Below, piece after piece: positions 1,122 to 44,355 of a stretch of 64,000 nucleotides of DNA; positions within the stretch are counted from its first letter, which is position 1; every line of letters begins with the position of its first letter. Made by a program: the position numbers and the translations under genes. This DNA comes from Acidobacteriota bacterium (GTDB taxonomy: Bacteria > Acidobacteriota > UBA6911 > RPQK01 > G965218465). Below the pieces are notes generated by a model, which saw only the letters and a list, made by a program, of their open reading frames with translations, did no database searches and was not told the origin of the DNA. The stretch spans positions 2,959,549 through 3,023,548 of the forward strand of contig OZ244623.1 of NCBI GenBank assembly GCA_965218465.1, written 5' to 3'.

Positions 1122-4100
1122 ATGACAAAGAGGCCATCGCAAATGCAGGGTCTCTATGACCCCAGCTATGAGCACGACAGTTGTGGCGTCGGCTTGGTAG
1201 CCCACATCAAGGGCCGGCGGAGCCACCAGATCATCCGTGATGCCGGGGCCGTGCTGGTCAACATGCAGCATCGCAGCGCCTGCGGTTGTGAACCTGACTC
1301 CGGTGATGGAGCGGGTATCTTGACAGCTCTACCCCATGAGTTCTTGGCCAAAGCGGCCACTCGGGATATGCAGGTCGACCTGCCTCCGGTTGGCCGCTGG
1401 GGAGCAGGGGTCGTCTTCTTGCCGCAATTGGCGGCGGAACGGCGCCAATGCAAGGAGGCGGTGAATCATATAGTTCAGCAGCATGGCCAGCGTCTGCTTG
1501 GTTGGCGGCGGGTGCCGGTCGATCCGGTTGGGGCTGGACTGGGCGCAACCGCGCGGAGTGCCGAACCTGTTATACAGCAGCTTTTTGTGGCTGCAGCCCC
1601 TGGAATGAAGCCGGACGCCTTTGAGCGAATTCTCTACCTGATCCGAAAGCGGGCCAGCCATCTCCTTCGAGTTGAGCAGCCGCTGCGGCAAGGAAAATTC
1701 TTTTACATCTGCTCGCTCTCGACTCAACAACTCATCTACAAGGGAATGCTGCGACCGGTGCAATTGATGGACTACTTTGCCGACTTGCGCGACCGGCATT
1801 ACGCCACCCACTACGCCATCGTGCACTCACGTTTTTCCACCAACACTTTTCCCAGTTGGGATCGGGCCCAGCCCAATCGCATGATGTGCCACAACGGCGA
1901 GATCAACACCCTTAAGGGGAACGTCAACTGGATGCGGGCGCGCCAAGGTGTTGCCCACAGCCCCCTGTTTGGGGACCATCTGCGTCATTTGTTCCCGATA
2001 GCCGAGCCGGATTGCTCCGATTCAGGGAACTTCGACAATGTGCTCGAGTTTCTGCGAATGTCAGGCCGATCATTGCCTGAAGCGGTCATGATGATGATTC
2101 CCGAAGCTTGGCAGGAAAACCGGTTGATGGCCGACGATCGACGTGCCTTTTACGAATACCACTCTTGTCTGATGGAGCCCTGGGACGGACCCGCCTCGAT
2201 CATTTTTAGCGATGGCGGTTACGCGGGAGCGGTCCTGGACCGCAATGGACTGCGACCCAGCCGCTACACCTTGACTCATGATGACCGGGTCATCCTGGCC
2301 AGCGAGGTTGGCGTGCTGCCGACGATCCCGCCCAATTTGATTAAGGCCAAGGGGCGTCTCCAACCGGGGCGGATGTTCCTGATCGATTTCCGACAGGGCC
2401 GGGTGGTTCCGGACCGGGAAGTGAAAACATCGCTTGCCCGGCAGAGGCCTTATCGCTTTTGGTTAGACCGTCATGGATTTGATCTCAAAGACCTGACTGG
2501 ACCTCGCCCCACGGCCAGCCTCGACTCACCTACACTGATTGCCCGACAGCGGGCCTTCGGTTACACCACGGAAACGCTCCAGTTCATGCTCTTGCCACTG
2601 GTTGAGCAACGGCGCGATCCAGTGGGGTCGATGGGTAACGATGCCGCGCTGGCCTGTCTCAGCCAACAACCGCGGCTCATTTACGACTACTTCAAGCAAC
2701 TGTTTGCGCAGGTCACCAATCCGGCAATTGACTCGATCCGTGAACAGTTGGTGATGTCGCTTGAATGCTGGATTGGACCCGAGGGTAATCTGCTTGAAAC
2801 TACTGAAGAGCAAGCCAGCCGGCTCAGGGTTTCTCACCCAGTGTTGACCAATCAGGAGTTGGCGGCGATTCAGGCAATGGATCAGGGGGGCTGGCGCACC
2901 AAGACGATCGACATGACTTTTGACCGCCGCAAGGGTTCTCGCGGATTGCGGCCGGCTCTGCTCCGGATTTGTCAGGAGGCTGAGGACGCTGTAAACGACT
3001 ATGGCCTGCTCGTCCTTTCCGACCGGGCCGTGAGTCCACGACGGGTTCAGGTCAGCTCGCTGCTGGCCTGCGGTGCGGTTCACCAGCATCTGGTACGTCG
3101 GGGGAAACGCACTCGAGTCGGAATCGTAGTCGAGACCGGCGAGGCGCGTGAGGTTCACCACCATTGTCTCTTGGTTGGCTTTGGAGCCGACGCCATCAAT
3201 CCCTACTTGGCTTTTGAATCTCTCTGGGAGGCCCGCCGTCAAGGCTGGTTGGCGCCTCCCGAGTTCAACGATGATGCGCAGGTGGTGAAGGCTTATCGCA
3301 AGGGAGTGGCCAAGGGGATGCTCAAGGTGATGGCCAAAATGGGTATCTCAACCTTGCAATCGTATAAAGGAGCCCAGATCTTCGAGGCCCTGGGGCTGGG
3401 TGACGAAGTGATCGATTTCTGCTTCGCCGGCACCTCCAGTCAGATCCAGGGAGTGGACTTCGAGCTCTTGGCTCGGGAGCTGCTCCGTTTGCACCGTCTG
3501 GGATACCCGAAGCGCGGTGATGCTGATGCTTCACTGCCCAATCCAGGTGAATATCATTGGCGGCCCGGAGGGGAAAAGCGGGCTTGGGATCCTGCCACCA
3601 TAGCGAGTCTGCAGGTGGCAGCGCGCGGGCGTGATAGCGACTCTTACGAGGAATTCGCTCGCCGGGTGAACGACGAAAATCGTGACCGCCATACCTTGCG
3701 TGGCTTGATGGGTTTTCGGTCCCGGAGCAATGGTGTTTCGGTCGACTTGACCGAGGTCGAGCCGGCGAGTGAAATCGTCAAACGGTTCTGTACCGGGGCC
3801 ATGAGTTTCGGATCGATCTCGACCGAGACCCATGAAACGCTGGCCATCGCCATGAACCGAATTGGCGGCAAGAGCAATACCGGTGAAGGAGGCGAAGATC
3901 CGGCACGCTTCCAACCGTTACCCAACGGTGATTCTCGGCGTTCGGCCATCAAGCAGGTCGCCTCGGGACGCTTTGGAGTGACCGCCTGGTATCTCACCAA
4001 CGCCGACGAACTGCAGATCAAGATTGCTCAGGGGGCCAAACCGGGCGAGGGAGGTGAACTTCCCAGCCACAAGGTCGACCAAACCATTGCCCGAATTCGG

Positions 4101-25514: not shown

Positions 25515-26459
25515 TCAGAGTGAATTAGGGCCATTCCAGAAAAAGGCCTTAAAGCTCTTGCAAAGCCTGAAACCAAGCCGCCGGTAGAGCTTGTAGGCTC
25601 CATGGTTGGTTTCGGTTACCGATAACGCTGTGCGCTCAATCGATTGACCCGCGGCCAATGCAAAATAGCGCTTCAAAAGAAAGGTTCCCAGACCTCGGCC
25701 TTGGGCGTTTCGGCGGATCGAGATCTGGGGGATCATGCCCATTTGGGGTCCGATCCGAGTCGAGAGCAAGATTCCCACTAGAGACCCGGAGTTGTCGAAA
25801 GCCATCAAGCTGGTCCTGGATTGAAACTCACCACAGCCCGGGCTGTCGATGAGATTGCGCAAGAATCGTGTACAGCCTTGCAGGCTCTGATAGTCCTGAC
25901 AAATTTGGAAATCTTGTGAATTACGATAGCTGTCCAGTATTACCGAGGCGGCGGTGACGAAGAAGCGCGGCTTCCATTGGGTCACCTCAAAACCCGTGGG
26001 TGGGGCGCCGATCGGCTCCGGCGAGCCTAGATCCCGGTGCAGGAAAAGACGATCCAGCATTTCGAATCTGTGGCGCCGGAAGAGAGGCGCCAAGTCGCAG
26101 TTGAAGGGAAAGATTTGGCATTCAATGCGCCGCAGCAACGGTTTATTCCGGCGCAAAGATGTCAAAGTTGGAGTCAAGAGCTTGTGATAGGCTTGCAAAT
26201 CGGCGTAGCTCCGGCTGACAAAGATGTTGCCGATATAGCCCACCGAGGAGTTCAGGACGTAATAGGTGTAGCCCACAGCACGTCCCGAAGGCGCAGTCAA
26301 GACATAGCCGGTCAGGCTGCGGGCCTTGAGATATTTCTTGATCACTTGGGCTGCCGGTCGATAATTCCAGTCCAGCTCATGCTGCCAGCAGCCAATCTCC
26401 TCTTCCAAGACCGGGCTTAGATCTGGGTTGGGAGACGAGGAAAAAGGCTCCACCCGCAT
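25515..26459 (-). CDS. GNAT-family acetyltransferase (two-domain, ~314 aa)
   Basis: C-terminal QGRGLGTFLLKRYFALAAGQSIERTALSVTETNHGAYKLYRRLGF (GNAT motifs A/B). Confidence 0.6.
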   Translation of the reverse strand: MRVEPFSSSPNPDLSPVLEEEIGCWQHELDWNYRPAAQVIKKYLKARSLTGYVLTAPSGRAVGYTYYVLNSSVGYIGNIFVSRSYADLQAYHKLLTPTLTSLRRNKPLLRRIECQIFPFNCDLAPLFRRHRFEMLDRLFLHRDLGSPEPIGAPPTGFEVTQWKPRFFVTAASVILDSYRNSQDFQICQDYQSLQGCTRFLRNLIDSPGCGEFQSRTSLMAFDNSGSLVGILLSTRIGPQMGMIPQISIRRNAQGRGLGTFLLKRYFALAAGQSIERTALSVTETNHGAYKLYRRLGFRLCKSFKAFFWNGPNSL

Positions 26460-26602
26460 GGCATTATTCTAACATTGCGAGGGTTAACCGCACCGCCTCT
26501 CAGGGGTGGCCGTGCGCGGTCAGGTGTCGGGCAGTCGGGCAGCACCCTTGATGCCGGCCGCGCTGTTGTCCCCTTTTGGTGCCAACGTCTATAATTGGGG
26601 CG

Positions 26603-27559
26603 ATGCAATTAAAGCTTCAGCCCAAGAACATGGAACTCTCGTCGAGCCTGGAGAAGCTGGTGGAGCGGAAGGCGCGCAAGGTCCGCAAGATGCTACCGAC
26701 TTTCCAATCCGAGGACCTGAGTTTGCACGCCAATCTGGAGCAACTTCCCCGGGGAAAACAGTTTCAGTCGGCGTTGATTTTGTCGACGCCACAAAAAGTA
26801 ATCCGAGTCGAGGACATTGAAGAGAACGCGGTGACCAGTGTTGTTCGCGCTTTCGACGAATTGCTGCGACGAGTCAAGAAATTCAAGAGTCAGCTTAACC
26901 GGGAGCGTTATCATCACCGCCCGACCCGAGCCACGCTTGCCGATCATTCCGCGGTTTCTCGGCCAATGGAACAAGAGGTCGAAAGGCATTTGGATACCAT
27001 CGACAATTTTGTTCGGCGGGAGCTGTACCATCGCGCCCTGGCTGGCGATTTTCAACCTGGCTCTCTCCGTTCCCAGGCGGTGGTGGACGAGGTTTTTCTG
27101 GAAGTGACCGCGCGCGTTGCCACTCGCTCTAAAAAGTCTGCGATGCGACCTTGGATTTTCCGGATTGCCCGTGAGGTGATGGCCCGACGCATCGCGGAAC
27201 ATCCCTTCCGCCAGGGCCAAGATGAGAGTGCTGGCAAGGAGCCATCAAGCGACCACGACGAGGTGCTGAATTTTTACCAGCCTGAGGAAACACTTCAGTT
27301 GGAAAATCTGTTGCCGGACCTGGATGCCGACCCGGAAGAACTGCTTCGAAAAGACGCCAGGGAAGAACACTTGCACAGAGCAATTGCCGCGCTCCCCACT
27401 TCCCTGCGAGAGTCGTTCGTGCTGTTTGTACTGGAAGGCCTGGGCTCGGAGGAAGTGGCCCAAATCACCGGCAGGAGTGCCCAAGAGGTGCGGGAAGACG
27501 TCAAACAAACTCGGCAGCAATTGCGCCGGTGGTGGACTGAACGAAGTCAACCCTGCTGA
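26603..27559 (+). CDS. Fusion protein: N-terminal ribosome hibernation factor (HPF/RaiA, S30AE) domain + C-terminal ECF-type sigma-70 regions 2 and 4
   Basis: MQLKLQPKNMELSSSLEKLVERKARKV...ALILSTPQKVIRVEDIEENAVTSVVRAFDELLRRVKKFKSQL matches the HPF pattern (M.I.I.G.N.E.T.AL..YV..K..KL...VIRAE....D.Y.AID...DKLERQL.K.K). Downstream AVVDEVFLEVTARV...MRPWIFRIAREVMARRI (region 2) and LRESFVLFVLEGLGSEEVAQITGRSAQEVREDVKQTRQQLRR (region 4). Single uninterrupted frame. Internal ATG at 26966 could also initiate a stand-alone sigma. Confidence 0.55.
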   Translation: MQLKLQPKNMELSSSLEKLVERKARKVRKMLPTFQSEDLSLHANLEQLPRGKQFQSALILSTPQKVIRVEDIEENAVTSVVRAFDELLRRVKKFKSQLNRERYHHRPTRATLADHSAVSRPMEQEVERHLDTIDNFVRRELYHRALAGDFQPGSLRSQAVVDEVFLEVTARVATRSKKSAMRPWIFRIAREVMARRIAEHPFRQGQDESAGKEPSSDHDEVLNFYQPEETLQLENLLPDLDADPEELLRKDAREEHLHRAIAALPTSLRESFVLFVLEGLGSEEVAQITGRSAQEVREDVKQTRQQLRRWWTERSQPC

Positions 27560-27602: not shown

Positions 27603-28784
27603 ATGAAACTGTCACGACGTGTAGAAATGATTTCACCATCAGCGACCATCTCGGTGATGCAGGAGACCCAGAAATTGCGGGCCCAGGGTGCAGACATCAT
27701 TGATCTGGGGCCGGGGGAGCCCGACTTTCCCACGCCTGAGCCGATCAAAGCGGTGGCGCGTCAGGCGTTGGCTCAAAATTTCACTCGCTACACGGCCTCC
27801 TCAGGTACCCAGGAACTGCGACAGTCAGTAGCCAACCGGCTTAATCGTCTCTATGGCAGCCGTTTCGGGAGCGAGAACGTGGTCATCACCTGTGGCGCCA
27901 AACACGCCATTTACGACGTTTGTATGGCCTGCTTCGAGGAGGGAGATGAGGTTCTGATACCCGCCCCTTATTGGGTGACTTTCCCGGAAGTCGTCCGGCT
28001 TGCGGGTGCGACACCCCGAAGCTTCGCGACTCGGGCAGAAGATGACTTCGTCCTTCACACCTCCGCCGTGAAATCGAAGGTTACCGAGTCCACTCGGGGA
28101 CTGATAATCAATTCCCCCAACAACCCGACCGGTGCGGTGATCCCGGCAGTTCAAATGGAATCGCTGACAGAGTTCTGCCGCAACTCCGGCGTGTTCCTGC
28201 TCTCTGATGAGACCTATGATCTCTTTGTTTATGATGGCTATCAGCACACCTCGTTGGCTTCACTGGTCGATCCGTCGGACGACTTCTACGCAATCGTTGG
28301 GTCGGCTTCCAAGACTTTTTCCATGACCGGCTGGCGGATCGGATTCTGTGTTGGCCACCCGACGCTGATGCGAAAGATCGGGGCATTTCAGAGTCATCAG
28401 AGCGGCAACCCCAACTCTATCGCGCAAAAGGCGGCGGTGGCCGCTTTCGATAGCGGATTGGAACTGATCGAGGAGATGAGACAGGAATATGCCAGACGAC
28501 GAACCCTGGTTTTGGACCGGTTGGCTGAGATTCCGGGTTTCTCGTGCCCCCGTCCCAACGGAGCTTTCTATGCCTTCCCAAACGTGAGCCAAGCCCTTGA
28601 AAACAACGGGATCAGCAATTCCGTAGAATTCTCAAAGTTTCTTATCCGTGATGCCGGGGTGGCCACCGTACCGGGATCCGCCTTTGGGATGGAAGGCTAT
28701 ATTCGACTCTCCTACGCAACTTCGACCGAGAATCTCCGCGAAGCGTTGTCCCGAATCCGTCGCGCGGTCACCCAAGGCGGCTGA
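27603..28784 (+). CDS. Pyridoxal-phosphate-dependent aminotransferase class I/II (aspartate aminotransferase-like)
   Basis: IIDLGPGEPDFPTPEPIKAVA...NSPNNPTGAV...SKTFSMTGWRIGF (PLP-Lys motif). Confidence 0.85.
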   Translation: MKLSRRVEMISPSATISVMQETQKLRAQGADIIDLGPGEPDFPTPEPIKAVARQALAQNFTRYTASSGTQELRQSVANRLNRLYGSRFGSENVVITCGAKHAIYDVCMACFEEGDEVLIPAPYWVTFPEVVRLAGATPRSFATRAEDDFVLHTSAVKSKVTESTRGLIINSPNNPTGAVIPAVQMESLTEFCRNSGVFLLSDETYDLFVYDGYQHTSLASLVDPSDDFYAIVGSASKTFSMTGWRIGFCVGHPTLMRKIGAFQSHQSGNPNSIAQKAAVAAFDSGLELIEEMRQEYARRRTLVLDRLAEIPGFSCPRPNGAFYAFPNVSQALENNGISNSVEFSKFLIRDAGVATVPGSAFGMEGYIRLSYATSTENLREALSRIRRAVTQGG

Positions 28785-28952: not shown

Positions 28953-29759
28953 ATGCCGTGCTATAGGGTACTGGGCTTAGTGGAGAACACCTCAGATTCC
29001 GACTTGGACAAGAGCCTCCGAAATGTTTCGGTGATCCTGGTCAAGACGTTACAACCCGGCAACATTGGTTCCGTCGCACGGGCCATGGACAACATGGGTC
29101 TGCGACGGCTTCTCTTGGTAGCCCCGGCGCAGGAGATCAACGACGAGTGTCGGCGCATGGCCGGCAAATCGATTTGGCTGGTGGAAGATGCGCCGCGTTT
29201 CGCGAACTTCGATTCCGCCGTAGCCGATGAACATATGCTGGTGGCCGCCACCTCAGCTCGCAACCGGCATCTAAGGCGGCCAATCTGCACACCGCGAGAG
29301 GCAGCGCCATTGATCCTTGCGAGGGCTCGCAAGCAGCGTGTGAGTTTGGTCTTTGGGCCGGAACAGGCGGGTTTGACCTCAAGCCAGTTGGCCCGCTGTC
29401 AGCTGTGGGTGTCGATTCCGGCCAACCCCGCCGTGCCCGTGCTCAATCTGTCTCAAGCAGTGCTAATTCTCTGTTACGAGCTGGCTTTGAGCCGAATCAG
29501 GCAACTTCCGCCCCGTCTCTCGACGATCTCGCAGAGGGAGCGGCGTCAGCTGTTTGAACAGGTGGAAAGGGTGCTTTTGAGCATTGGATTCCTGAGTTCC
29601 CGCGACACCGAGCGGATGATGCAAAAGATCGAAGATTTTTGGGGCGGTCCTGAACTCACTGCTGACGGTCTCAAGATCCTGCGAGGCATCATGAGCCAGA
29701 TGGAGTGGTTCGCCCGAGAGGGCCGGCTTCGCGATCCCGATAGCATCCGTAAGCCCTGA
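28953..29759 (+). CDS. SpoU/TrmH-family RNA 2'-O-methyltransferase, TrmJ-like (with C-terminal extension)
   Basis: VILVKTLQPGNIGSVARAMDNMGL...LVFGPEQAGLTSSQLARCQLWVSIPANPAVPVLNLSQAV (SPOUT knot motifs). Confidence 0.7.
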   Translation: MPCYRVLGLVENTSDSDLDKSLRNVSVILVKTLQPGNIGSVARAMDNMGLRRLLLVAPAQEINDECRRMAGKSIWLVEDAPRFANFDSAVADEHMLVAATSARNRHLRRPICTPREAAPLILARARKQRVSLVFGPEQAGLTSSQLARCQLWVSIPANPAVPVLNLSQAVLILCYELALSRIRQLPPRLSTISQRERRQLFEQVERVLLSIGFLSSRDTERMMQKIEDFWGGPELTADGLKILRGIMSQMEWFAREGRLRDPDSIRKP

Positions 29760-42176: not shown

Positions 42177-43154
42177 TTAATAGCCGAGGCTTTGGTGCGC
42201 TGCGCTCAGAATGCGATGTTGGCTCGGCAAGTAGTGTTCTTCGAGCGCATAAGGGAAAGGAACATCATAACCGGTTACCCGAAAAACCGGCGCTTGGAGA
42301 TGGAGCATGGCCCTTTCGCTGATAACCGCCGCCAATTCGGCTCCAAAGCCGCAAGTTCGCGGGGCTTCATGAACGATCACGACCCGACCGGTTTTCTCAA
42401 CTGAGGCCAAGACGGTCTCGATGTCATAGGGCATCAGGGTTCGCAGATCAATCACTTCGATGTCAAGTCCTTCATCGGCTGCCGCCTTTTCCGCCGTCTG
42501 CAAGGTCAACGGGACCATGGCGCCGTAGCAAAGGATTGTGAGATGACTCCCTGGTCGCACCACTTGGGCCTTGCCCAGCTCAATCGTGTAGTCCCCTTCC
42601 GGAACTTCGCCTCGAGCTGCCCTATAGATTTTCTTGGGCTCCAAGAAAATCACCGGATTATCATCCCGGATCGATGCCAGGAGCAAGCCCTTGGCATCAT
42701 GGGGACTAGAGGGGACGACTACCTTGAGGCCGGGAGTGTGGATGAAGTAGGCCTCGGGGCTTTGGGAATGATAGTGCCCGCCACGAATGCCGCCGCCGTA
42801 GGGTGTCCGGATGACCATGGGACAGGTGATCTGTCCTCCCGACCGGTATCGCATTTTGGCGGCCTCATTGACGATCTGATCGAAGGCCGGAAAAATAAAA
42901 TCCACGAACTGGATCTCGGGGACGGCACGAAGTCCGTAAAGCGCCATGCCGATCGCGCAGCCGATGATGCCCCCTTCAGACAGCGGAGTATCGCAGACAC
43001 GTTCGGTTCCAAACTCTTTCTGGAGTCCTTGGGTGGCACGAAAGACGCCGCCAAAATGGCCGACATCTTCGCCTAGGATGACAACCCTTTCGTCGCGTCT
43101 CATCTCAAGACGCAAGGCATCGTTTATGGCCTGAATAATATTGAGTGTCGGCAT
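42177..43154 (-). CDS. 2-oxoisovalerate dehydrogenase E1 beta subunit
   Basis: MPTLNIIQAINDALRLEMRRDERVVILGEDVG...DTPLSEGGIIG is transketolase-like. Confidence 0.9.
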   Translation of the reverse strand: MPTLNIIQAINDALRLEMRRDERVVILGEDVGHFGGVFRATQGLQKEFGTERVCDTPLSEGGIIGCAIGMALYGLRAVPEIQFVDFIFPAFDQIVNEAAKMRYRSGGQITCPMVIRTPYGGGIRGGHYHSQSPEAYFIHTPGLKVVVPSSPHDAKGLLLASIRDDNPVIFLEPKKIYRAARGEVPEGDYTIELGKAQVVRPGSHLTILCYGAMVPLTLQTAEKAAADEGLDIEVIDLRTLMPYDIETVLASVEKTGRVVIVHEAPRTCGFGAELAAVISERAMLHLQAPVFRVTGYDVPFPYALEEHYLPSQHRILSAAHQSLGY

Positions 43155-43168
43155 CTGGAGGATCGGAC

Positions 43169-44254
43169 TTATCGCTCTACCGTTATTGCGTTCTCGAGCT
43201 CTTGCTGTTGTTCGGTCAAATGCCAGGGCTGTTGGTCAAAAACATCTTGAAAAAGACTATCAACGTCCGGGCTTCCCACCGCTTCGGCCTGGCGAATGTT
43301 GTCCAGGATTTGATTCTGAATCTCCTTCTCCAGCCGCTGGTCTTCTTTTTCAGACCACCGTTTGGTGTTGATGAGATAGTTCTTCAACCGTCGCAGCGGA
43401 TCACGAGGTTCCCACTTATCTACCTCTTGCGCATCGCGGTAAGCCCTTGGATCATCGGAAGTTGAGTGTCCGCTCATTCGATAAGTGACCGCCTCGATCA
43501 ATGTCGGACCATCTCCTCGACGAGCCTTCTCGACTGCCTTCCGAGTCACTGAATATACTCCGAGCAGGTCGTTGCCATCGACTCGTACTCCATCAATGCC
43601 ATAGGCGAGGCCCTTAATAGCCAAGTTCTTGCTGGCCGTCTGCTTGGCCAGCGGAACGGAGATCGCCCACTGGTTGTTGCGGCAAAAAAACACTGCCGGA
43701 ACCTTGAAGGTTGCGGCGAAATTAAGGCCGACGTGAAAGTCGCCCTGGGAAGTAGCCCCGTCGCCGAAGTACACCAATACAGCTTCTTTTTTTCCCAAGA
43801 TCTTGGCTGCCCAAGCCACTCCCGTGGCCTGAGGGATCTGAGTGCCGACTGGACTGGAAACCGAGCCGTAGTAGAGTTCCGCTGCCGCAAAATGATTCGG
43901 CATTTGACGACCCTGAATAGGATCCTCCCGGTTGCCAAACAATTGGCAACAGAAGTCGTGAATTGGGAAGCCTCGCAAGAGCGCGGCGCCCAGTTCGCGA
44001 TAGGCGGGTATGATCCACTCATTGGCTCGCAGGGCAAAGGCGCTGCCGACAACCGCGGCTTCTTCGCCGATTGAGCCGATGTAGAAACCGATGCGCCCTT
44101 GACGCTGCAGGGTGATCATCCGCTGGTCGAGGCGGCGGGTGAAGAGCATAGTGCGGTAGAGCTTTAGCAGGTCTCTATCGCCGATTTGAGGAGCCTTAAT
44201 CCCGTCGGCCAACTTCCCATCAGGACGCAGAATCTGCACAATTGAATCGGCCAT
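43169..44254 (-). CDS. 2-oxoisovalerate dehydrogenase E1 alpha subunit (TPP-binding)
   Basis: ...YFGDGATSQGDFHVGLNFAA...YRMSGHSTSDDPRAYR. Confidence 0.9.
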   Translation of the reverse strand: MADSIVQILRPDGKLADGIKAPQIGDRDLLKLYRTMLFTRRLDQRMITLQRQGRIGFYIGSIGEEAAVVGSAFALRANEWIIPAYRELGAALLRGFPIHDFCCQLFGNREDPIQGRQMPNHFAAAELYYGSVSSPVGTQIPQATGVAWAAKILGKKEAVLVYFGDGATSQGDFHVGLNFAATFKVPAVFFCRNNQWAISVPLAKQTASKNLAIKGLAYGIDGVRVDGNDLLGVYSVTRKAVEKARRGDGPTLIEAVTYRMSGHSTSDDPRAYRDAQEVDKWEPRDPLRRLKNYLINTKRWSEKEDQRLEKEIQNQILDNIRQAEAVGSPDVDSLFQDVFDQQPWHLTEQQQELENAITVER

Positions 44255-44355
44255 TGGGCGAGATTATATATTTGGTCAAACCGGAGACTCAAGGCTGCAG
44301 CGAGAACATTTGTGGCCAGTATGGCTTGGTCCGAATCAGGAAGGGGAGGTCCACA

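Follow-up and report, generated by a model that had tools for sequence, protein, structure and literature searches.

The contig OZ244623.1 of an Acidobacteriota bacterium (assembly GCA_965218465.1) was analyzed over 64,000 nucleotides (positions 2,959,549 to 3,023,548, forward strand); this whole stretch is called the window here, and window coordinates are counted from its first nucleotide. The gene under study encodes a protein of 318 amino acids, in which a domain of the HPF/RaiA family of ribosome hibernation factors is followed in the same frame by a sigma module resembling that of extracytoplasmic function (ECF) sigma factors. The following features of this fusion gene were assigned:

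26603..27559, + strand: coding sequence of the fusion protein (318 amino acids, HPF domain and ECF-like sigma module), stop codon TGA at 27557-27559; from the list of open reading frames (ORFs), sequence reading, Pfam and NCBIfam
26603..26914, + strand: HPF/RaiA-fold (S30AE) domain, residues 1-104; from PF02482, PDB sequence matches, the AlphaFold2 model (predicted local distance difference test, pLDDT, ∼90) and Foldseek (template modelling score, TM, 0.8-0.9)
26915..26956, + strand: inter-domain linker, residues 105-118, variable and predicted to be disordered; from pLDDT <50 at residues 103-118 and the alignment
26957..27202, + strand: sigma region-2-like domain, residues 119-200; from TIGR02937, the AlgU/sigmaE profile match, four helices in the AlphaFold2 model and column counts
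27203..27337, + strand: acidic sigma2-sigma4 linker, residues 201-245; motif (W)DDExLNFYQPDExLxLEDLLxD...PEE, family mean net charge -11.2
27338..27547, + strand: sigma region-4 helix-turn-helix domain, residues 246-315; motif LPxxxRESFVLxxLEGFxxxEVAMI, PF08281 at 33.9 bits
26966..26968, + strand: internal ATG (Met122), proposed earlier as an alternative start, not conserved

A conserved reading frame

A preliminary description of this DNA had read the HPF domain and the ECF-like sigma factor as joined in frame. This could be confirmed by the uninterrupted ORF of 318 amino acids, matches to both domains, the AlphaFold2 model, the Foldseek comparisons and ∼96 homologous clusters. The ORF list gives a single ORF (26576..27559, +), and the 318 amino acids are counted from ATG 26603. 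Neither a stop codon nor a frame break was found by reading the sequence between 26900 and 26970, where an interruption had been considered, or in the rest of the frame, and the frame is continuous in the homologous clusters. The homologues always begin at an aligned Met (Met-Asn/Gln-hydrophobic-Lys) and use ATG without exception; by this alignment the start codon is ATG 26603. The upstream TTG at 26576 was rejected as a start, as it lies 5' of a conserved -10 box and the homologues start at the aligned ATG. It had also been suggested that the ATG at 26966 might allow separate expression of the sigma part. In the column of Met122, Met is present in two of 77 family sequences (Leu in 52, Phe in 9, Val in 8), hence this codon is no conserved feature and a separate start was rejected.

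A search of 5.8 billion proteins resulted in 96 clusters (90% identity) of ∼310-330 amino acids with 40-98% identity, all of which contain both the S30AE and the sigma domain and whose named members are without exception from Acidobacteriota. When one genome per species was scanned, 61 loci were found, of which 46 belong to Acidobacteriota, 5 to Calditrichota, 7 to Verrucomicrobiota (including two cultured Limisphaera strains) and 3 to Acetobacteraceae (the cultured Caldovatus sediminis and C. aquaticus, and a metagenome-assembled genome). The fusion is also carried by 57 metagenome contigs. Among 1.84 billion representatives at 50% identity, an exhaustive profile search detected 115 proteins with E<=1e-30 and 672 with E<=1e-10; most of the best 150 matches cover the whole profile, at lengths of 310-390 amino acids. 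The distant members from Calditrichota, Verrucomicrobiota and Acetobacteraceae (23-29% identity) contain S30AE and sigma4 by Pfam and aligned over their full length. Because 115 matches reach E<=1e-30, mostly over the whole profile, and loci were found in four phyla, these searches identify the fusion as a sizeable, old family across at least four phyla. Looking for the same fusion in relatives, as the preliminary description had proposed, thus turned up >100 clusters (50% identity) spread over at least four phyla, and judged by these sequences the window genome shares the architecture with many others. The automatic names given to members by NCBI and JGI include 'HPF/RaiA family ribosome-associated protein' and 'sigma-70 family RNA polymerase sigma factor'.

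In the alignments, conservation could be observed over the entire length of the protein. The (near-)invariant residues are F94 K95 S96 and L98 N99 R100 E101 at the junction, R139, E140, D162 E163 V164 F165 L166, W184, A189 and R190 in sigma2, W217, D219 E220, F224, P227, E229, E234 D235, D239 and P244 E245 in the linker, and L264, R269, E278 G279, E284, A286 M287 and R304 in sigma4. This pattern, at 40-98% identity, indicates that both modules and their junction are under purifying selection.

An architecture this rare a priori could also be an artefact, in which neighbouring hpf and ECF sigma genes were merged by a frameshift error in sequencing or the loss of a stop codon, or in which the sigma part is made from the in-frame ATG at 26966. 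However, the unbroken architecture recurs at the same length in ∼96 independent clusters as well as in 61 species-level genomes and 57 metagenome contigs, no motif of the protein is better conserved than the junction, and a 98%-identical copy with the same ORF and the same neighbours is present on an independent 415-kb contig. By this conserved frame the frameshift or two-gene artefact was rejected. On the sequences compared it is already refuted, with next to no probability left to it, and both an artefact and a separate expression of the two halves are practically excluded.

The HPF domain and the sigma module

According to the preliminary description, the N-terminal part matches the HPF/S30AE family almost position by position. 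Indeed, residues 4-98 align with positions 2-87 of the 88 positions of PF02482 (Ribosomal_S30AE) at 35.4 bits (cut-off 23.7), and outgroup fusions score 28.8-47.4 bits. Compared with PDB sequences, the first half of the protein matches HPFs (Listeria HPF with E 6.5e-5); at the end of helix 2, RQIRKHKTKVNRK of Listeria HPF aligned to RRVKKFKSQLNRE of the window protein, and both are K/R-rich. The domain is basic, with a family mean net charge of +8.6 and an isoelectric point of 10.5 (77 members). K26, R89, K92, K95 and R100 are conserved, and Lys/Arg are found on both helices, presumably as a basic two-helix face. The domain terminates in the invariant FKSQLNRE, which is the junction motif and the most conserved stretch of the protein; the inter-domain linker behind it varies in sequence and is conserved in length. 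The HPF domain of characterized homologues binds the decoding channel of the 30S subunit, and ribosome binding is predicted for that of the fusion. The dimerization domain of long HPFs, Ribosom_S30AE_C, gave no Pfam match in the window protein, even at E<=10.

The AlphaFold2 model, calculated from 77 homologues, reached 80.5 in mean pLDDT and 0.55 in predicted TM score (pTM). Residues 1-104 (pLDDT ∼90) are predicted as a beta-alpha-beta-beta-beta-alpha fold with strands 2-8, 40-47, 54-61 and 66-73 and helices 14-30 and 76-104. They are followed by disorder (103-118), the four sigma2 helices (116-199), the mostly disordered acidic linker and sigma4 (246-315). Foldseek comparison with the PDB resulted in target-normalised TM scores of 0.80-0.90 and root-mean-square deviations of 1.5-2.7 Å for HPF/YfiA/pY structures (2ywq, 4hei, 2rql, 8rd8, 8uu7), and the identity of the window domain to solved HPFs is 13-25%. 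Among ECF sigma factors the scores were 0.69 for CnrH/CnrY, 0.65 for EcfG-type RpoE/NepR and 0.63 for SigW/RsiW, the best matches being compact, anti-sigma-bound states. At the level of the predicted model, an HPF fold and a sigma2/sigma4 fold are thereby confirmed.

In the region-2-like domain, the motif NY(I/V)RRE, the invariant D162 followed by EVFL (region 2.2) and the invariant W184 followed by xxxIAR (region 2.3) could be identified; the motif of the acidic linker is common to the Calditrichota fusions and to the sigma-only relatives described below. The sigma regions named in the preliminary description were recovered in part. Region 4 is matched by PF08281 (Sigma70_r4_2; residues 257-307, 33.9 bits, cut-off 25.7), and the NCBIfam ECF profile TIGR02937 (sigma70-ECF) spans sigma2 and sigma4 (residues 123-309, 55.1 bits, cut-off 42.9). 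For region 2, PF04542 (Sigma70_r2) stayed below threshold with 12.7 bits (cut-off 24), so that of the Pfam families expected there PF02482 and PF08281 were found and PF04542 was not. PF07638 (Sigma70_ECF) barely passes (21.3 bits, cut-off 21.1), and no specific ECF equivalog of NCBIfam comes near its cut-off (best PRK12513, 57.6 bits vs 206). The identification of sigma region 2 is therefore a qualified one, based on TIGR02937, the AlgU/sigmaE profile match and the predicted fold, and not on Pfam.

The second half of the protein matches AlgU, sigmaE and SigE among the PDB sequences. A profile of the sigma part, built including the distant fusions and the sigma-only relatives, matches true ECFs over both domains (AlgU with 63 bits, E 3e-16, positions 38-198; sigmaE with 61 bits), but the sigma-like domains of PhyR over sigma4 only (34-39 bits). 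On the basis of this difference, the profile comparison assigns the sigma module to the RpoE-like ECF modules by descent.

The same comparison bears on whether the fusion acts as a sigma mimic in the manner of PhyR, i.e., as an anti-anti-sigma factor whose non-DNA-binding module titrates an anti-sigma factor from a true ECF, with the HPF domain replacing the receiver as input. Like PhyR, the fusion combines a sigma-derived module with a signal-input domain and has a non-basic recognition helix, and an acidic helix is consistent with a sigma4 that does not bind DNA. PF22233 (PhyR_sigma-like, cut-off 27 bits) is at or above its cut-off in many members (27.6-46.8 bits), with 28.7-31.4 bits in Calditrichota, 28.4 and 27.6 in Verrucomicrobia and 46.8 in the fusion member P0134. 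The motif LEGF...E.A and the acidic helix presumably resemble the PhyR sigma-like domain, and the predicted arrangement of sigma2 and sigma4 is like the compact, anti-sigma-bound state. However, in the window protein PF22233 reaches 16.4 bits vs 33.9 for Sigma70_r4_2, and the family profile is nearer to working ECFs. The domain order is reversed with respect to PhyR, the input domain is unrelated and no receiver domain is present. AlphaFold2 models of ECFs are commonly compact, which makes the compact-state match weak evidence. No NepR-like or other anti-sigma gene and no EcfG-like gene is conserved nearby. The Caldovatus cluster described below does contain the fusion, a sigma-only paralogue and a small DUF5335 protein as possible partner, but the recognition helix of that paralogue is equally non-basic, and it is no obvious 'true' partner sigma. 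Such a mimic is considered improbable.

Promoter and gene neighbourhoods

Upstream and downstream of the fusion gene, the following features were assigned in the window:

26566..26571, + strand: -35-like hexamer TTGTCC (family consensus TTGCCx), 10/12 promoter match, spacer 18
26590..26595, + strand: -10 box, perfect TATAAT, 7 nucleotides 5' of ATG 26603
27603..28784, + strand: class I/II aminotransferase, conserved downstream neighbour; PF00155 at 246 bits, synteny
28953..29759, + strand: SpoU/TrmH-family RNA methyltransferase, second conserved downstream neighbour; PF00588 at 86.5 bits, synteny
25515..26459, - strand: GNAT acetyltransferase, conserved divergent upstream neighbour; PF00583 at 59.5 bits, synteny

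Of 62 Acidobacteriota-type loci, 60 have a perfect TATAAT located 6-13 nucleotides 5' of the ATG (42/44 genome loci and 18/18 metagenome loci; the window, L001-L042, L055 and L070-L089), and TTGCCx at a spacer of 17-18 from TATAAT is found in most Acidobacteriota loci. The whole 64-kb window contains four TATAAT hexamers, two of them 7-8 nucleotides before the ATG of a long ORF. No Shine-Dalgarno sequence precedes the fusion ATG in the window or in the Acidobacteriota loci. Because a start of transcription ∼7 nucleotides past the -10 box would fall on the AUG or a few bases from it, the mRNA of the Acidobacteriota fusions is predicted to be leaderless or nearly so. This layout is lineage-specific, and in Calditrichota the fusion is preceded by a GGAGGA Shine-Dalgarno sequence instead. 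An ECF-type autoregulatory promoter was not found 5' of the fusion in the Acidobacteriota-type loci and was rejected, as a conserved promoter of the housekeeping type (TTGCCx-N17/18-TATAAT) is present there. With such a promoter and a leaderless mRNA, control would be expected at the post-translational level and not by ECF autoregulation.

Another of the four TATAAT hexamers lies 8 nucleotides 5' of the ATG (44254) of an ORF of 361 amino acids (43169-44268, -), which by eye is like the E1 alpha subunit of thiamine pyrophosphate-dependent 2-oxoacid dehydrogenases; it is followed by an E1 beta-like ORF (42177-43154). Given this second case, leaderless genes may be recurrent in the window genome.

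The aminotransferase gene starts 43 nucleotides past the fusion with its own Shine-Dalgarno sequence (GGGAG), no + strand terminator is located between the two genes, and they are probably co-transcribed. The synteny in Acidobacteriota also includes lytic transglycosylase-like and fumarylacetoacetase-like genes (assigned by eye). In many Acidobacteriota loci (L004, L005, L009, L011-L016, L025, L026, L031, L035, L038 and L041), a gene for an HD + OB-fold protein of ∼335 amino acids lies on the strand of the fusion between the GNAT gene and the fusion, and the fusion promoter overlaps its 3' end. This gene is absent from the window lineage; we take the combination of HD and OB to be typical of YhaM-type exoribonucleases. 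Neither the window nor the conserved Acidobacteriota neighbourhoods gave a gene for an anti-sigma factor; a co-encoded anti-sigma factor or an autoregulated ECF-type promoter is frequent among ECFs without being obligatory. By tblastn, neither a canonical HPF nor the bacterial eRF1-like protein baeRF-1 (within 6 kb) was found in the window or in the Acidobacteriota loci.

Genes of the baeRF group were identified next to fusions outside this lineage. In 13 Verrucomicrobia-type loci, a gene for a baeRF family-12/Host_attach protein of 161 amino acids adjoins the fusion or lies one gene upstream, and in L056 and L117 it overlaps the fusion by 4 nucleotides. The surroundings of the Verrucomicrobia-type fusions (L050-L057 and L096-L126, e.g., L050 4264-10579 and L117 5495-8163) form a conserved stress cluster, where an M50-CBS peptidase or FtsH is encoded upstream and a MerR-type regulator and a DnaJ-like protein (J + DnaJ_C) downstream, with genes for Hsp20, Lon and HtrA as well as for a PLD-family enzyme and a rhomboid protein nearby. 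By eye, the regions 5' of the Verrucomicrobia baeRF family-12 genes showed no clear shared ECF, sigma32, HAIR or CIRCE motif. The fusion member P0134 is directly followed by a baeRF family-10/12 gene.

A conserved protein of ∼127 amino acids (MSDFRE..LL.RAFR.V.GV.YNRARREL...) is encoded beside the fusion or the baeRF family-12 gene in Verrucomicrobia-type loci (L057 5079-5462, L096 704-1087, L106 7180-7536, L115 7070-7456 and L124 3667-4053; also L052, L053, L122 and L108). It has no Pfam or PADLOC match and could be a partner protein. A link to anti-phage defence was rejected, as PADLOC gave no meaningful matches for the fusion, the baeRF proteins or the 127-amino-acid protein.

In C. aquaticus (L062), the fusion (2701-3660) precedes three genes for Hsp20, one for a DUF5335 protein and one for a sigma-only paralogue (to 6576). 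The cluster is also present in L060 (C. sediminis) and L125, and both Caldovatus strains are cultured. With its two sigma paralogues, the locus resembles a partner-switch layout.

Sigma-only relatives were found by the exhaustive profile search, while a word-indexed search gave the fusion family alone. They comprise 220-260 amino acids, carry the motifs NFVRRE, VVDE, WLxxLA, FYQPDE...ED..PD..PEE and REAFVL..EGF and keep acidic residues at the positions of the DAED motif of canonical ECFs (RAED, TPED, RVEE, TPEE). The genes of P0230 and P0188 are directly followed by baeRF family-10 genes; in the sigma-only loci L063 (315-2207), L064 and L068 (269-1526) the baeRF family-10 gene lies within ∼20-40 nucleotides downstream. 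Because sigma-only genes without an HPF domain directly precede baeRF family-10 genes, these neighbourhoods suggest a sigma/baeRF-1 pair with the ribosome-binding partner in trans. Directly 5' of P0188, at L068 1-268, a further sigma2-like fragment, KPDKVTLEPWLYLLSRAAIDRLA, was observed, which suggests that paralogues lie in tandem or that this short contig is rearranged.

Possible roles of the fusion

An HPF-ECF sigma fusion is undescribed in the searchable literature, as the preliminary description had assumed. The parts of the text available from the ECF classification (PMC7826278), the review of non-canonical ECFs (PMC8999054) and the 2019 release-factor paper (PMC6514570) do not mention it, nor does that of the classification contain a matching named ECF group. 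ECF270 was considered as its group and rejected because, in the text available, ECF270 is ZAS-regulated.

Several known systems share single traits with the fusion. The long HPFs of S. aureus, B. subtilis and Listeria and the short HPF/YfiA proteins (RaiA, pY) are like the window protein in fold, S30AE match and basic, K/R-rich helix end. In long HPF a flexible linker likewise leads to a second domain, which in the fusion is sigma2-sigma4 and not a dimerization domain. The extended ECFs ECF41/42 (SnoaL-like C-terminal extensions), ECF121 BldN and ECF36 SigC (N-terminal) likewise consist of a sigma2/sigma4 core without regions 1.1 and 3 (PMC7826278, PMC8999054), and they too have no adjacent anti-sigma gene and an extra domain able to regulate in cis. 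The extension of the fusion is N-terminal, ∼105 amino acids long and has a ribosome-binding fold, whereas the N-terminal ECF extensions described in the available parts of these papers are short or transmembrane anti-sigma domains. Conserved HPF--baeRF-1 neighbourhoods have been read as a likely joint shutdown of ribosomes (Burroughs and Aravind, 2019; PMC6514570), and fusion members likewise adjoin baeRF family-10/12 genes. The text available from that paper names no sigma domain on the HPF partner and no sigma-only/baeRF-1 pairs, and the Acidobacteriota lineage of the window has no baeRF-1 in reach. The present loci show that at least some 'HPF' partners of baeRF-1 of the published type are HPF-sigma fusions and that sigma alone also pairs with baeRF-1.

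The architecture, folds, conservation, spread, charge asymmetry, promoter and neighbourhoods of the family are established in this analysis. The best reading, held tentatively and at rather less than even chances, is that an ECF-like sigma module is gated by its own ribosome-binding domain. The HPF domain would take the role of an anti-sigma factor in cis for a complete, non-canonical sigma2-linker-sigma4 module, to which it is connected by a flexible tether of 15-20 residues. In the free protein, the basic HPF domain (+9) would mask the acidic sigma part, whose mean net charges are -3.2 for sigma2, -11.2 for the sigma2-sigma4 linker and -4.6 for sigma4 (∼-19 in total), the acidic linker being nucleic-acid-like. 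During stress or dormancy, vacant or stalled ribosomes would compete for the HPF domain, and this competition would alter the availability of the sigma module to RNA polymerase, by release or by sequestration, and switch a stress/proteostasis programme. Translational shutdown would thus be converted into a transcriptional stress response. We infer ribosome binding, RNA polymerase binding, intramolecular masking and a regulon from the features described above. That no anti-sigma gene lies nearby fits a regulator supplied in cis, and the coupling between ribosome and transcription is strengthened by relatives that adjoin baeRF-1 and heat-shock genes.

Several observations weigh against gating by the HPF domain. 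The recognition helix has lost its basic residues: it reads EVREDVKQTR in the window and EVLxDVExAR in the family vs TVRSRIFRAR in sigmaE, and its net charge is -1.2 (family mean) vs +3, while R269 and R304 are kept in sigma4. At positions 156-159, the equivalent of DAED, the window protein has RSQA and the family consensus QPQA (A159 occurs in 75/77 members), next to a conserved D162-E163 pair. Residue 191, after the IAR motif, is variable, and many ECFs have a conserved Asn at this position. To these are added the sub-threshold PF04542 match and, for the HPF domain, the NCBIfam equivalog TIGR00741 (yfiA/HPF), which at 30.3 bits stays below its cut-off of 40.9. The contact by which HPF would mask sigma is purely hypothetical, the pTM of the model being 0.55. 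In the Acidobacteriota, no baeRF-1 was found within 6 kb or in the window, and the neighbours (aminotransferase, SpoU, GNAT, HD-OB) are not obviously stress genes. Where heat-shock genes are present, the fusion could equally be a member of the heat-shock regulon and not its regulator.

Canonical ECFs need the DAED motif in sigma2.2 for contact with beta', and ECF43 EcfP, which is without it, is inactive until phosphorylated (PMC8999054). The fusion likewise has uncharged residues there (STTA in EcfP, RSQA/QPQA in the fusion), which suggests a sigma factor that needs an activating input for binding to core RNA polymerase; with the DAED motif missing, the module looks activation-dependent. It differs from EcfP in having no Ser/Thr kinase nearby and no conserved Ser/Thr at the DAED positions, and the candidate input is the HPF module. 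With an acidic to neutral recognition helix and without DAED, the sigma module is non-canonical, and to call it a 'transcription initiation factor', as the preliminary description did, is an inference. 

The same losses make the main rival conceivable, in which the protein is mainly a hibernation factor whose sigma-derived domain replaces the dimerization domain of long HPF without taking part in initiation. The sigma part might then dimerize ribosomes, dock baeRF-1 or chaperones, or tether or sequester RNA polymerase on dormant ribosomes ('co-hibernation'). Consistent with this are the missing basic DNA-contact residues and DAED motif, the Sigma70_r2 match below threshold, the name 'HPF/RaiA family ribosome-associated protein' given to many members by NCBI, and the order of N-terminal HPF domain, flexible linker and second domain, which is the layout of long HPF. 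The association with baeRF-1, proposed to act on ribosomes with HPF, is persistent, a canonical HPF was found neither in the window nor in the loci examined, and the promoter is strong and of the housekeeping type. However, DEVFL of region 2.2 and the Trp of region 2.3 are (near-)invariant and the sigma2 + sigma4 profile matches working ECFs throughout, both of which are unexpected for a mere dimerization module, and the C-terminal domain of long HPF is unmatched. Moreover, relatives of the same clade exist without an HPF domain, so the sigma module should have a function of its own. Taken together, a role mainly in hibernation is rather unlikely.

Gating of the sigma module by its own HPF domain can be extended to a more general and, as a whole, unlikely proposal, in which the ribosome is the signalling partner of the sigma factor. 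HPF in cis or baeRF-1 in trans would restrain the ECF-like module, and vacant or stalled ribosomes would cause it to be handed to, or withdrawn from, RNA polymerase. This would be a direct partner switch between ribosome and RNA polymerase at the protein level, serving a dormancy/proteostasis regulon across at least four phyla without recourse to (p)ppGpp or to classical anti-sigma factors.

Both halves of the protein belong to well-studied families, and it is their joining that is undescribed in the searchable literature. The association of HPF with baeRF-1, which was published but unexplained, gains a sigma-like module as third component and a link to heat-shock/proteostasis clusters. Read conservatively, the family would be a new class of hibernation factors or, beyond the PhyR system, the first mimic of a sigma factor. 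The idea is testable in cultured carriers, i.e., Limisphaera spp., Caldovatus sediminis and C. aquaticus. If the gating model holds true, the fusion would represent a new mode of sigma regulation with the ribosome as input, and a new output for a hibernation-factor domain.

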